A stretch of 6,065 nt of DNA from a virus (lineage: Duplodnaviria > Heunggongvirae > Uroviricota > Caudoviricetes): the IMG/VR virus record IMGVR_UViG_638341086_000005; one strand, written 5' to 3'. The notes beneath the pieces are model-generated. The model did not search any database. It was given only the letters and a program-made list of their open reading frames with translations, and had not been told where the DNA came from. A program made the translations under genes and the position numbers. How positions within the stretch are numbered: the stretch's first letter is position 1; each line of letters opens with the position of its first letter. This document shows, one piece after another, positions 1,236 to 4,967 of the stretch.

Positions 1236-1535
1236 ATGAGAACATATTTATCTGGCTTGACTGCCAGCGGTTATGCACACCCCCAAATTATCCCCGGCGC
1301 TATTTATCTGGATAAGAACGGTAACAGAGTAACGGTAAAAGAACTGATGTTTGACCGTGTGTATTTTATCCGTGATGGCTATTCATTTCTTAGTTCGCTG
1401 AACGTGGAGATCTTTATTAGCAGATTCAGGCGGGAAATCCCGCTTTCCAGAAATAACCATGTGTCATGTATGGATGTTGATAAAAAACTACAGGAACTAA
1501 AAAACATGATTGCCGCGTGGAGAGAGCAGAAATGA
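1236..1535 (+). CDS. hypothetical protein (99 aa), AT-rich orphan gene
   Basis: ORF starting 7 nt after the previous stop. Its stop overlaps the rep start codon (ATGA at 1532-1535), indicating translational coupling into rep. AT-rich. No family recognised. Confidence 0.5.
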   Translation: MRTYLSGLTASGYAHPQIIPGAIYLDKNGNRVTVKELMFDRVYFIRDGYSFLSSLNVEIFISRFRREIPLSRNNHVSCMDVDKKLQELKNMIAAWREQK

Positions 1536-3655
1536 AAAAAGCGCCAAATTTAAAACACCAGCCACGTGACAAAATGACGGAAGTCATCATTTTTGCGGGT
1601 AGTGATGCGTGGGCACATGCGAAGCAGTGGCAGGAACAGGACGGGCGACTGGCTGGCGACAGCGTGCCTCCTGTCTGGCTTGGAGAGCAACAACTTGCCG
1701 AACTGGATAAGCTGCAAATTGTGCCGGAAGGCCGAAAATCAGTACGCATATTCAGGGCCGGACATCTTGAGCCAGTAATGATCAAGGCGATTGGTCAGAA
1801 GCTGGCGGCGGCAGGCGTACAGGATGCAAATTTTTACCCTGATGGAATGCACGGTCAGGAGGTGGAGAACTGGCGCGAATATCTAGCCCGTGAGCGGCAG
1901 AATCTTTCTGATGGTCTGGTTATTGAGTTTCCGGTAAAGAAAAAAGATACCGGAAGCCATAGCGATGACGAATTAAAGCCACGCGTTGAAAGTCGCGCCG
2001 ATGGTGTTTTCTGGGTAACGCCCAAAGTGGATAAGCAGTCAGGCGAAATTATCCGGCCTGAGACGTGGTTATGTTCTCCGCTTGAACTACTGGGAACGGG
2101 GACGATCGGTAAAGAGCATTACCGCGTGATGCGCTGGAAAAAAACCGCAAACCATGAAGTCATCACAATGGCGATCCCGTGTGGTGGTATCGGCGACCGT
2201 GACGGCTGGCGGTTACTTAAAGATCACGGGCTGAACGTGACAACCAACGGCAAATACAGGGCAATCCTGGCGGACTGGATGCAGTTAAGCGGAAGCCATG
2301 AGGAATGGCAGTTAAGCACAACAACGGGCTGGCATTTTGGCGCGTACATCATGCCGGACGGTTCGATCATTGGTGAATCTGAAAAACCGATCCTGTTTAC
2401 CGGAAAAAGCGCCGCGATTAACGGTTATTCCGTGGCGGGCACGGCGGATGGCTGGCGCGACAGCGTGGCGCGTCTGGCTGGCGGTAATGCCTCAATGATG
2501 CTGGGTGTGGCAACGTCACTGGCAGCGCCTTTAATTGGCCTTGTGGGTGCTGACGGCTTCGGGGTGCATCTTTTCGAACAGTCATCGGCAGGTAAGACCA
2601 CCACGCAGAACATCGCATCAAGTTTATGGGGAGAGCCGGACGCGCAGCGGCTGACCTGGTACGGCACGGCGTTAGGTATTGCCAATGAGGCCGAGGCCCA
2701 TAATGACGGGCTTTTACCACTGGATGAGATAGGCCAGGCCGGAAATGCGCGGGAAGTGTCAACGTCTGCTTATACGCTGTTTAACGGTTCAGGGAAATTG
2801 CAGGGGGCGAAGGATGGCGGCAACAGGGAGATCAAACACTGGCGAACGGTGGCAATCAGCACCGGAGAAATGGACGTTGAGACATTCCTCAAAAGTGAGG
2901 GGATAAAAGTTAAGGCGGGGCAGCTTGTCCGACTGCTTAACGTTCCGATGGAAAAAGCCACGAAATTTCACGAATACAGCAACGGTAAGGAACATGCTGA
3001 CGCGTTAAAGGATGCCTGGACAGCAAATCACGGGGCGGCGGGTCGTGAGTGGGTTAAATGGCTGGCAGGCCACCAGCAGGAGGCAAAGGATACGGTAAGG
3101 GAATGCCGCGAACGGTGGCGCAACCTGATACCGGAGAGCTACGGCGAGCAGGTCCACCGCGTGGGTGAACGTTTCGCCATACTGGAGGCCGCGCTTGTGC
3201 TTTCCGGTCATGTAACTGGCTGGGTCGTGCAGGAATGCCGCGACGCGATACAGCATAACTTTAATGCCTGGGTGAAGGAGTTCGGCACGGGTAACAGGGA
3301 ATTTAAACAGATGGTTGAACAGGCTGAGGCGTTTTTGTCGTCGTTTGGGTTTAGCCGCTACCTTCCGTACCCCAATACAGATGAGCGTGATTTACCGATT
3401 AAAGAGCTTGCCGGATACAGAAAAGGGAGCATTCGCAACGAAGATGACGAGATGCGCTATTACACGTTCCCGCACGTGTTTGAGAGTGAGATAGCGAAGG
3501 GATTTAATCCGGCGCATTTTGCGCGTGCCCTGGATGCTGCCGGAATGCTGGAGAAGGGAAGCGATCGCCGATACAAAAAAAAGGCGCTGGGCAAGATTGG
3601 GGGTAAGCAGCATGTTTTTTACGTGCTGATGTTCCAGCCTGATGATGAAGATTAA
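1532..3655 (+). CDS. replication initiator, primase/helicase-like P-loop NTPase (DUF927-type / satellite Pri-Rep-like)
   Basis: Longest ORF in the window. Probable start ATG 1532 (SD GGAGAGAG at 1519-1526) rather than the GTG at 1517. Walker A-like FEQSSAGKTTT (~2575-2607) and Walker B-like LLPLDEIG (~2710-2735). TTTGWHFGAYIMPDGSIIG segment resembles DUF927-type replication proteins. Followed directly by the iteron array, as expected for a cis-acting initiator. Confidence 0.8.
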   Translation: MKKAPNLKHQPRDKMTEVIIFAGSDAWAHAKQWQEQDGRLAGDSVPPVWLGEQQLAELDKLQIVPEGRKSVRIFRAGHLEPVMIKAIGQKLAAAGVQDANFYPDGMHGQEVENWREYLARERQNLSDGLVIEFPVKKKDTGSHSDDELKPRVESRADGVFWVTPKVDKQSGEIIRPETWLCSPLELLGTGTIGKEHYRVMRWKKTANHEVITMAIPCGGIGDRDGWRLLKDHGLNVTTNGKYRAILADWMQLSGSHEEWQLSTTTGWHFGAYIMPDGSIIGESEKPILFTGKSAAINGYSVAGTADGWRDSVARLAGGNASMMLGVATSLAAPLIGLVGADGFGVHLFEQSSAGKTTTQNIASSLWGEPDAQRLTWYGTALGIANEAEAHNDGLLPLDEIGQAGNAREVSTSAYTLFNGSGKLQGAKDGGNREIKHWRTVAISTGEMDVETFLKSEGIKVKAGQLVRLLNVPMEKATKFHEYSNGKEHADALKDAWTANHGAAGREWVKWLAGHQQEAKDTVRECRERWRNLIPESYGEQVHRVGERFAILEAALVLSGHVTGWVVQECRDAIQHNFNAWVKEFGTGNREFKQMVEQAEAFLSSFGFSRYLPYPNTDERDLPIKELAGYRKGSIRNEDDEMRYYTFPHVFESEIAKGFNPAHFARALDAAGMLEKGSDRRYKKKALGKIGGKQHVFYVLMFQPDDED

Positions 3656-3677
3656 TCCCCTGTGTGAGGAAAAAAAT

Positions 3678-3993
3678 TGCGGGTTATGCGGGTTATCCTG
3701 TGTATAAGTGTATTAAGTGCATGAATATAAAGGAAACCAATAACCCGCACGTAACCCGCAAAATGGCATTTATAACCCGCAAAAGCACGATTATAACCCG
3801 CAGGCGAATAACTGAAGTAACACCGGACAGTCATGCGTAACCCGCAGAAAAAACCCCGTTTGCGGGTTATTTTGAGCGTTTTGCGGGTTACGTGGTGAGC
3901 AAATAATAAACAGGGCGTTTTGCAAAATACTGATATAAAAGGATAAAAAATGGTTAGCACGCTAAGATAACCCAATAACCCGCATAACCCGCA
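3678..3993. repeat. iteron array / putative origin of replication (9-mer TAACCCGCA, 11 perfect copies, both orientations) with AT-rich tracts
   Basis: TGCGGGTTA at 3678-3686, 3687-3695, 3861-3869, 3882-3890. Reverse complement TAACCCGCA at 3741-3749, 3752-3760, 3773-3781, 3794-3802, 3838-3846, 3976-3984, 3985-3993, plus degenerate TAACCCAA at 3968-3975. Spacings of 9, 11, 21, 21 and 21 bp are near helical-turn multiples. AT-rich stretches at 3901-3960 and 4001-4013 (TATATATATAAAT) are candidate unwinding elements. No credible coding capacity (only a low-complexity antisense ORF). Confidence 0.75.
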
Positions 3994-4025
3994 CATGTTT
4001 CTATATATATAAATTGAGGTGGCAA

Positions 4026-4277
4026 ATGACCAGAACACGCAGAGACAGAACAGAGCCAAAATATAAAGCGTTAGACATGACTGAGCACACCTTAAAGGTG
4101 GCAATCAGAACGATAGACCGCCACACGCGGGAAGGATACGCGAAGGAACATCCCGACCTGATAAGCGCATTCATGACCACGGCGGCGGCAAACTTTGCCA
4201 CGCTGACAGAACGGGAGATTGCCGAAGCGGAACAGGTAACAACCATCAACGTTAAAACCGGAGAGGTGGAATCATGA
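4026..4277 (+). CDS. hypothetical protein (83 aa), translationally coupled to ssb
   Basis: ATG at 4026 with SD GAGGTGG at 4016-4022; the track's 4014 start is a TTG a few codons upstream. Stop overlaps the ssb start (ATGA at 4274-4277). No family recognised. Confidence 0.55.
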   Translation: MTRTRRDRTEPKYKALDMTEHTLKVAIRTIDRHTREGYAKEHPDLISAFMTTAAANFATLTEREIAEAEQVTTINVKTGEVES

Positions 4278-4684
4278 CAGCACAGATAGCGGCTTACGGT
4301 CGGCTGGTGGACGACCCGCAGGTAAAACAGACCAGCAAGGGCACACCGATGACGCTGGCGCGTATGGCGGTATCACTGCCATGCAGTCAGGCACAGGACG
4401 GACAGGCGACGTTATGGCTATCGGTCATCGCATTTGGTAAGCAGGCCGACTTCCTGGCTAAACATCAAAAAGGCGACGTTGCCAGCGTATCCGGCACGAT
4501 GCAGGTCAGCCAGTGGACCGGACAGAACGGGGAGACGCGTCAGGGTTATCAGGTTATTGCAGACAGCGTAATCAGTGCCCGTGCGGCACGTCCTGGCGGG
4601 AACAGACGCAAAACCACAGGCGCACAGGGTAATCAGCCACCAGCGGGAGGCGATGACCCTTACGGTGATGATATTCCGTTCTGA
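4274..4684 (+). CDS. ssb: single-stranded DNA-binding protein (SSB)
   Basis: OB-fold-like N-terminal region (GRLVDDPQVKQTSKGTPMTLARMAV...WLSVIAFGKQADFL...SVSGTMQVSQWTGQNGETRQGYQVIADSV), a Gly/Pro/Gln-rich linker, and the canonical acidic SSB tail ...DDPYGDDIPF at the C-terminus. SD GAGGTGGA at 4263-4270. Confidence 0.85.
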   Translation: MTAQIAAYGRLVDDPQVKQTSKGTPMTLARMAVSLPCSQAQDGQATLWLSVIAFGKQADFLAKHQKGDVASVSGTMQVSQWTGQNGETRQGYQVIADSVISARAARPGGNRRKTTGAQGNQPPAGGDDPYGDDIPF

Positions 4685-4694
4685 GGGGGTGACG

Positions 4695-4967
4695 ATGGTA
4701 CATGACCGCATAGCGGAAGAACTCGAAGCGAAAGGATTTTACCGGAGGGCGGCGGCGCGATGGGGTGAAGTCATGATGCTGGTGGAGACAGACAAGGAAC
4801 GGCATCACATCACGATGCGACGGCTGGAATGTTCCAGGAAGGCACAGAGGCCACCGGAGCCGCCGGATAATTACGGAGACCTGAAAAAGGCGGTCGATCG
4901 CACTTATGCCGAAATGGGTATGGATGGTGCTGGTGATGAAATATGGCGAAATTACCAGGACAGATAA
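4695..4967 (+). CDS. PerC-like small transcriptional activator family protein (90 aa)
   Basis: ATG 4695 with SD GAGGGGGTGA (4683-4692) just after the ssb stop; the track's 4575 start would overlap ssb out of frame. N-terminus MVHDRIAEELEAKGFYRRAAARWGEVMM resembles, from memory, PerC-family proteins encoded by E. coli prophages. Followed by an intrinsic terminator. Confidence 0.55.
   Translation: MVHDRIAEELEAKGFYRRAAARWGEVMMLVETDKERHHITMRRLECSRKAQRPPEPPDNYGDLKKAVDRTYAEMGMDGAGDEIWRNYQDR

Follow-up and report, generated by a model that had tools for sequence, protein, structure and literature searches.

The stretch of DNA analyzed here (the window, 6065 bp, from IMG/VR virus record IMGVR_UViG_638341086_000005) is part of an Escherichia coli capsid-forming phage-inducible chromosomal island (cf-PICI). 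Immediately downstream of its rep gene, region 3656-4025 contains an array of short repeats (iterons) and is very probably the vegetative replication origin of this island, a prediction based on sequence comparison in which replication would follow the mechanism of the Staphylococcus aureus pathogenicity islands (SaPIs). An earlier note on this DNA had proposed a plasmid- or satellite-type origin bound by its own initiator, encoded at 1532..3655. The genomic context, the homology of Rep, the constancy of the iteron scaffold in related loci, and the co-variation of the iteron with one domain of Rep all support such a predicted origin. The satellite nature of the element, which was also part of the proposal, is evident from its gene order, which is that of a cf-PICI, and the product of 1532..3655 is by both sequence and predicted fold a homolog of the SaPIbov1 initiator.

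The Iteron Array Downstream of rep

An exact search of both strands detected 11 copies of the 9-mer TAACCCGCA in the 6065-bp window, all of them inside 3678-3993. Seven copies are on the + strand (starts 3741, 3752, 3773, 3794, 3838, 3976, and 3985) and four on the - strand (starts 3678, 3687, 3861, and 3882). None of 200 dinucleotide-preserving shuffles reached 11; they contained on average 0.07 copies and never more than 1. The array starts 23 bp past the rep stop codon, and its 11 copies form a single cluster, with no further copy of the 9-mer in the 24.5-kb locus. A mismatch scan revealed no full-length 9-bp copies with one or two mismatches inside the array. Alignment with relatives identified a 12th, degenerate copy of 8 bp, TAACCCAA at 3968-3975, which reads TAACCCGC in those relatives. 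With arrowheads for iteron orientation and GC content given as a fraction, the whole array can be written as << AT (GC 0.31) >>>> and > << AT (GC 0.35) (>)>>. The features of the region and of the genes on either side are as follows.

1532..3655, + strand: rep (707 aa), consisting of an N-terminal module of ~145 aa, a DUF927 helicase core, and a C-terminal putative winged-helix iteron-binding domain of ~100 aa
3353..3652, + strand: part of rep coding for the C-terminal domain (aa ~608-707), the likely determinant of iteron specificity
3678..3695, - strand: left tandem iteron pair, 2 x TAACCCGCA with a 9-bp step (exact search); position and step are kept in loci with other iterons
3696..3740: AT-rich spacer 1, GC 0.31, a candidate unwinding region
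3741..3802, + strand: four phased direct iterons (3741, 3752, 3773, and 3794; 11/21/21 spacing), mostly with an A-rich 3' flank
3803..3837: central spacer between the two modules, GC 0.51, of variable length in relatives
3838..3890: inner iterons of the right module, at 3838-3846 (+), 3861-3869 (-), and 3882-3890 (-)
3891..3967: AT-rich spacer 2, GC 0.35, with a core at 3900-3955 of GC 0.27
3968..3993, + strand: right tandem set, the degenerate TAACCCAA (3968-3975) followed by 2 x TAACCCGCA (3976-3993)
3997..4013, + strand: T-run and (TA)n motif GTTTCTATATATATAAA, abutting the right tandem set and independent of the iteron
4026..4277, + strand: first downstream gene (83 aa, phrog_1231), which marks the end of the origin and lies outside the recognition system

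The earlier note had described these 11 perfect copies in both orientations, and its account of their arrangement holds in detail: a tandem pair at 3678-3695 (9-bp step, - strand), five copies at 11/21/21/44-bp spacing (all on the + strand), an inverted pair across 3838-3869, two copies 21 bp apart (3861 and 3882), and another tandem pair at 3976-3993. The inverted pair (3838-3846 and 3861-3869) is a convergent 9-bp inverted repeat with a 14-bp spacer; considered as RNA, 3838-3890 has a folding z of -3.3, which is what an inverted repeat would give. Helical phasing, which the note had assigned to the array, applies to the direct set, in that the five + copies at 3741-3846 have a periodicity peak at 10.75 bp (R = 0.98, vector-sum), but not to the 9-bp tandem pairs, which are out of helical phase. 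The AT-rich tracts that it had placed at the flanks do exist, but most of them are located within the array. A third tract, 3' of the array at 3994-4025, has a GC content of 0.28, the value for the whole window being 0.50.

A Constant Scaffold with Variable Iterons

The comparative set comprised 37 loci of species-representative genomes (Enterobacterales, one Pseudomonas, and one Lonepinella), 80 IMG/VR contigs, and two E. coli loci picked as natural recombinants. The sequences examined for repeats were the window and 120 related loci (designated by L and a number where needed), 121 in all. In the 650 bp past the rep stop, nearly all of the 121 sequences have a repeated 8-9-mer of their own, present in 4-13 copies in 115 of them. 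These repeats fall into 19 iteron classes (e.g., TAACCCGCA, TAACCCAC, TGAACCAAC, TGAACCGAC, TGGGACAAC, TGGGATAAG, TGAGGCAAC, and TGGTACAAC).

While the sequence of the repeat varies, the scaffold on which it is placed is constant, with the orientation string --+++++--++(+). The offset of the first iteron from the rep stop is 21-47 bp (mostly 22-29) in all relatives but L035. The scaffold starts with a 9-bp tandem pair on the - strand, whose position and step are kept across iteron classes, and this pair is followed by a gap of 44-57 bp with a GC content of 0.09-0.35 in 17 of the 19 class representatives. The + copies at 11/21/21 spacing were also observed in classes TAACCCAC, TGAACCAAC, TGAACCACG, TGGTACAAC, and TGAACCCA. 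On the right side, the 22-24/21-bp spacing of the convergent pair and the further copy is kept across classes, and a second AT-rich gap (43-77 bp, mostly 44-45 bp) is present in 13 of the 13 representatives that have the right-hand module. The right tandem set of relatives consists of two or three (once four) full copies on the + strand at 8-9-bp steps. Many E. coli relatives have a short form, --++++, in which the left module stands alone. The start-to-start distance between the modules ranges from 17 to 411 bp among loci, and the internal spacing of both modules is constant.

Spacing was also analyzed over all class representatives. Tandems of 8-9 bp account for 34 of the 111 spacings between same-strand neighbors, and 66 of the other 77 deviate by no more than 1.5 bp from a multiple of 10.5. 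Conservation in the TAACCCGC class is higher in the iteron columns (97.9%) than in the spacers (87.1%; p = 1.6e-5).

Read on the opposite strand, the right module has tandem iterons, an AT-rich gap, and phased iterons, as in the left module. The predicted origin is thus composed of two mirror-image modules, each with these three elements. The AT-rich spacers of the two modules have no significant similarity (score 25 vs. 19.4 +/- 3.5), and therefore the symmetry of the modules is architectural. A recent inverted duplication was considered as the source of the two modules and found to be unsupported, the mirrored alignment being carried by the iterons.

In L023 (Dryocola clanedunensis) and L037 (Serratia sp.), no 8-mer is clearly repeated within 650 bp 3' of rep, the top k-mer count being 2, and their origin may be elsewhere, degenerate, or lost. 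In the IMG/VR contigs L045 and L046, the rep frame continues beyond the usual stop into the left tandem iterons, which could be due to stop-codon loss or a sequencing error.

Co-variation of the Iteron with the C-Terminal Domain of Rep

To what extent different parts of the locus predict a shared iteron class was analyzed pairwise among 101 unique Reps. Identity of the C-terminal domain (the last ~100 aa) was the best predictor, with an area under the curve (AUC) of 0.996; the helicase core (0.866), the N-terminus (0.73), the downstream gene (0.64), and the upstream DUF4222 gene (0.59) were weaker, and all of these pairwise AUCs are phylogenetically non-independent, many loci being close relatives, which counts against the strength of this argument. 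For this reason, the clearest evidence is provided by natural swaps. The Rep of L056 is 98% identical to that of the window in the core and 35% identical in the C-terminal domain, and the iterons of L056 are TGGGACAAC. The Reps of L040 and L039 are 100% identical in the N-terminus, 90% in the core, and 31% in the C-terminal domain, with TAACCCGCA versus TGAGGCAAC as iterons. When L040 is compared with the window, the N-terminus is 47% and the C-terminal domain 91% identical, and the iteron is shared. Based on co-variation and these natural swaps, we infer that iteron specificity maps to the last ~100 aa of Rep.

Two loci in one genome, L019 and L034 of Symbiopectobacterium purcellii (CP189882), encode Reps whose cores are 100% and whose C-terminal domains are 89% identical, and their iterons are TGAAACCCAT and TGAAACCAC, respectively. 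It is possible that specificity has diverged here between co-resident satellites.

Rep Is Predicted to Be an Initiator-Helicase

Rep contains the Pfam domain DUF927 (1.6e-48), and no match to D5_N, Pox_D5, or the Rep_3 family was found in it with Pfam. A PDB sequence search with Rep detected 8tch (1e-12) and 5dgk (0.0025). The same two entries were retrieved by Foldseek using a moderate-quality AlphaFold model of Rep (5dgk, 1.8e-8; 8tch, 1.1e-7; both with probability 1.00), with nothing else below 0.2. The former entry, 8tch, is described by its depositors as the SaPIbov1 "initiation of replication protein with helicase activity," and 5dgk is the Cch helicase of the staphylococcal cassette chromosome mec (SCCmec). 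Sequence and predicted fold thus identify Rep as a putative initiator-helicase homologous to SaPIbov1 Rep.

In the AlphaFold model of the whole Rep protein, confidence is limited to residues 1-127 and to parts of 150-340 and 480-580. The N-terminal ~145-aa module (aa 1-145, window 1532-1966) has a confident alpha/beta fold, with a predicted local distance difference test (pLDDT) score of 85-93. It is 78% identical to the N-terminus of Pri-Rep from the island EcCICFT073 (L122 8242-8730), the remaining protein there being an unrelated helicase of the D5/superfamily 3 (SF3) type. A shared N-terminus joined to unrelated helicase parts indicates that this module has been shuffled between two helicase families. 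Among DUF927 Reps the module is also mosaic, with 47-100% identity independent of the core.

The C-terminal domain occurs in discrete types and is mosaic relative to the remaining Rep. These types can be aligned on an invariant scaffold and are variable in a helix-turn-helix (HTH)-like stretch and in a basic hairpin.

Genomic Context of the Island

Region 3600-4100 of the window is 99.6% identical to an island of E. coli TOE17, which is located between cspD/yljB and clpS. The order of genes in the TOE17 island is integrase, HTH regulator, Icd-like protein, DUF4222 protein, DUF927 protein (rep), the array, a hypothetical protein, single-stranded DNA-binding protein (SSB), PerC, and a capsid block, the latter being composed of capsid, protease, portal, head closure protein, head-tail connector, HNH, the small terminase subunit TerS, and the large subunit TerL. 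Such a gene organization is that of capsid-forming PICIs (10.1101/2022.09.08.507074). The prophage-like element Sp7 of E. coli O157:H7 Sakai has an array of 11 copies whose relative positions are identical to those in the window, and its Rep (ECs_1582) is 97% identical to that of the window. According to the supplement of the 2018 PICI paper (PMC6092414), Sp7 is the same element as the island of EDL933, later named EcCIEDL933. An island of the EcCIEDL933 type has been reported to replicate after helper-phage induction, at the level of the whole island (10.1101/2022.09.08.507074).

Of 5426 complete E. coli genomes, 668 contain sequence similar to the query, which is covered to at least 80% in 135 of them. 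A search of a phage database with the whole window gave no match.

With regard to the genes downstream of the array, the phrog_1231 family is also found beside iterons of another class (GGGACAAC), and ssb directly follows other TAACCCGC origins. A PerC-family open reading frame (ORF) at 4575-4967 overlaps the last part of ssb when its listed GTG is taken as the start. Its TOE17 counterpart (L001 13096-13368) contains an internal stop and is annotated as a pseudogene, and the Sakai counterpart is annotated as pchE.

Noncoding Status and Accessory Motifs

The array region is noncoding, since RefSeq calls no gene between rep and the next coding sequence in TOE17 or Sakai, and the spacers of relatives differ by indels of 1, 2, 8, and 9 nt, including frame-breaking ones. 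The ORFs 3652-4104 (- strand, 150 aa) and 3664-3840 (+ strand) were rejected as genes on the basis of frame-breaking indels among relatives and the lack of annotation. Rfam contained no family matching at the gathering threshold. A sigma-70 consensus scan of 3400-4400 revealed no promoter, and terminator-like matches were at chance level. Neither GATC sites nor the strict consensus of integration host factor (IHF) were found in the origin, which contains one relaxed IHF-like match and one Fis-like match.

A perfect DnaA-box sequence, TTATACACA, is located at 3699-3707 (- strand), in AT-rich spacer 1 near the left tandem iterons. Among unique origins of the TAACCCGC class, 26 of 34 have this perfect box, and none of the 18 other iteron classes has it. 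Because of this restriction to the TAACCCGC class, DnaA was rejected as a general feature of these origins.

The (TA)n motif at the right end of the array does not depend on the iteron. In all long-form origins inspected, TTTTG-N(1-3)-TATATATA(A) is located directly 3' of the right tandem set, with any iteron, and it is absent from short-form origins; loci with this motif at the right origin end are the window, L003, L101, L004, L010, L015, L021, L022, L026, and L035. Its possible roles include that of a site for melting or priming and that of an extended -10-like element with which Rep sites overlap.

Between the rep stop and the left tandem iterons (3656-3677), an alternating purine-pyrimidine motif (CTGTGTGAGG, CACACAAGG, CACATGTGAGG) followed by an A-run is common to different classes.

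Proposed Mechanism and Alternative Explanations

A replication cycle of the following kind would be consistent with these observations. Upon helper-phage induction (AlpA-dependent in this island type), Rep would be made, and its C-terminal winged-helix-like domain would recognize the 9-bp iterons. Rep assembled on the phased and tandem iterons would distort and open the adjacent AT-rich spacers, and would then load itself as the replicative hexameric helicase, as for its homolog SaPIbov1 Rep. The left module (3678-3802) corresponds to the short origins found in many E. coli relatives and probably represents the minimal origin; the right module would be an optional second loading site. This is suggested by the variable spacer between the modules (17 to 411 bp) and by the many islands in which the left module stands alone.

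Several points weigh against this interpretation. The assignment of a winged helix to the C-terminal domain of Rep is weak: in the full-length AlphaFold model, the C-terminal domain, like the ATPase core, is below pLDDT 50; the domain modeled alone reached pLDDT 42; HTH_56, the HTH family of Cch, matched the Rep C-terminus with 24.5 bits, below the cut-off of 26.2 (9 of 17 C-terminal domain variants match it at E<=1); and a profile of the domain had no match among PDB sequences. In addition, the (TA)n motif beside the right iterons and the location of the array upstream of ssb-perC-capsid leave room for an added regulatory role. Finally, EcCICFT073 is a precedent for the design of this origin and not a homolog, because its helicase is of the D5/SF3 family.

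A broader model can also be considered, which we regard as rather unlikely in its entirety. In this model, the long-form origin would be a dyad of separable mirror-image half-origins, and Rep at the right tandem iterons and (TA)n would open the DNA for a second helicase of opposite direction and also gate transcription of ssb-perC-capsid, thereby coupling late expression to the start of replication. In parallel, exchange of a "C-terminal domain plus origin" cassette could let co-resident islands escape each other's replication control, for which L019 and L034 may be an example.

A different possibility is that the array mainly controls transcription of the ssb-perC-capsid operon 3' of it, as an operator or enhancer to which Rep or some other regulator binds, and that replication starts elsewhere or independently of the repeats. 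In favor of this, the array immediately precedes the next block of genes, plasmid iterons can double as operators, and TTTTG..TATATATA, which looks like an extended -10 element, adjoins the right tandem set of all long-form origins. However, we consider a main role of this kind quite improbable, because the repeat class follows neither the downstream gene (AUC 0.64; the same family occurs with several iteron classes) nor the upstream gene (0.59), no sigma-70 promoter was found in 3400-4400, and short-form origins have kept the left module without the TATATA motif and the right module. Moreover, (TA)n ends ~12 bp before the ATG, and a transcript from there would probably be without the GAGG ribosome-binding site at 4016-4019. 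AT-rich gaps with opposed iterons are also the architecture of SaPI origins (PMC9371898).

It was also considered whether the repeats serve only copy control/incompatibility (handcuffing) or partition and not initiation. Such a function would agree with the dispensability of the right-hand module in many relatives. Iteron clusters outside the minimal origin carry out copy control in P1, F, and R6K. Nevertheless, it appears very unlikely here, because the 24.5-kb locus contains no second iteron cluster that could be the true origin and no par genes were found by Pfam scan or in the island annotation; the left module, in addition, has the full anatomy of a SaPI-type origin.

Least probable of all is a packaging recognition site (cos or a pac accessory) for the small terminase of the island: HNH, TerS, and TerL are encoded by the island and small terminase subunits often bind arrays of short repeats, but the array is ~5.5 kb from terS and immediately after rep, and its repeat sequence tracks the C-terminal domain of Rep, so that a terminase site is disfavored by both position and co-variation. 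Like arrays in L039, L040, L058, and L002 precede other genes (ssb, ProQ, and PerC where called), and a like design follows the D5-type Pri-Rep of EcCICFT073, an island without terS (PMC6092414).

A predicted origin of the SaPI type therefore remains the preferred interpretation of region 3656-4025. It assigns a predicted origin and a likely specificity domain to the replicon of the prototypical cf-PICI (EcCIEDL933/Sp7 type). The 19 iteron classes share one scaffold, and each has a C-terminal variant of its own; together they provide a table for a DNA-recognition code, which may be used for predicting satellite compatibility and for building orthogonal Rep/ori pairs. Current understanding is not overturned by these findings.

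Comparison with Known Replication Systems

The earlier note had drawn an analogy with ori and crr of P4. P4 is a satellite in which one multifunctional initiator-helicase binds short repeated octamers via its C-terminal domain, a system also discussed in PMC6092414, and in function the analogy is appropriate. It does not extend to the helicase family, the iteron, or crr. The P4 alpha protein is a primase with a D5-type SF3 helicase and its iteron is TGTTCACC, and P4 needs a second cis element, crr, several kb from ori; the Rep described here is of the DUF927 family, its iteron differs, and no crr-like second cluster is present in the 24.5-kb locus.

Iteron plasmids (pSC101, F, P1, R6K, RK2, and pPS10) resemble the window in having phased iterons at ~21-22 bp beside an AT-rich unwinding element. 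A DnaA box beside the iterons is another similarity, which is limited to one iteron class. On the other hand, plasmid initiators are double winged-helix proteins of the Rep_3 type that recruit host DnaB, whereas here the predicted initiator is itself the helicase, and the conserved core of the iteron here is 9 bp.

Cch of SCCmec (5dgk) is the best fold match of Rep. Both proteins share DUF927, and the C-terminal domain is a near-threshold match to the Cch HTH. The genetic element is different, a cassette chromosome in one case and a phage satellite in the other. To our knowledge, no iteron origin has been defined for Cch.

With regard to islands of Gram-negative bacteria, the accessible cf-PICI literature does not describe the origin. 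The 9-mer had been noted as unfamiliar from characterized systems, and a full-text search agrees with this, retrieving only unrelated primers and sequences; the iterons in Fig. 2a of PMC6092414, available as an image, were not part of that comparison. Origins of Gram-negative PICIs have been described with the same organization, and pri-rep-ori of EcCICFT073 was shown to replicate (Fillol-Salom et al. 2018, PMC6092414). The window is similar to EcCICFT073 in island type and gene order (DUF4222, rep, ori, hypothetical protein, ssb, perC), and in both of them iterons flank an AT-rich stretch after rep. Beyond the shared N-terminus, however, the EcCICFT073 protein is a D5_N/DUF5906/Pox_D5 (SF3) helicase and not a DUF927 protein, and its iterons are CTGTCTACC-like. 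The Reps of EcCIATCC25922 and EcCIIHE3034, two other islands of that study (PMC6092414), are also of the D5 type.

The closest parallel is with the SaPIs (SaPIbov1, SaPI1, and SaPI5). SaPI Reps recognize short iterons by a C-terminal winged-helix domain and load themselves as helicases, and SaPI origins are located immediately 3' of rep, with 6-12 iterons, an AT-rich center, and at least two opposed iterons on each side (PMC9371898). In the window, likewise, Rep is a homolog by sequence and predicted fold, the predicted origin is 3' of rep, and 11 exact and one degenerate short iterons are opposed around AT-rich DNA, so that the comparison with PICI origins made in the earlier note proved accurate. 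Several differences exist: the host is Gram-negative; the iterons are 9 bp long versus 5-6 bp in SaPIs; the predicted origin is built from two modules in mirror image, contains two AT-rich gaps, has a 9-bp tandem set at either end, and includes a (TA)n motif that is conserved; and Rep has an extra N-terminal module of ~145 aa, which is common to D5-type PICI primases. By sequence comparison, this Gram-negative replicon is a true homolog of SaPIbov1 Rep-ori and not of the D5-type replicon of EcCICFT073, and the array after rep is the expected SaPI/PICI design of "rep followed by iteron ori," here in a well supported and ordinary form.

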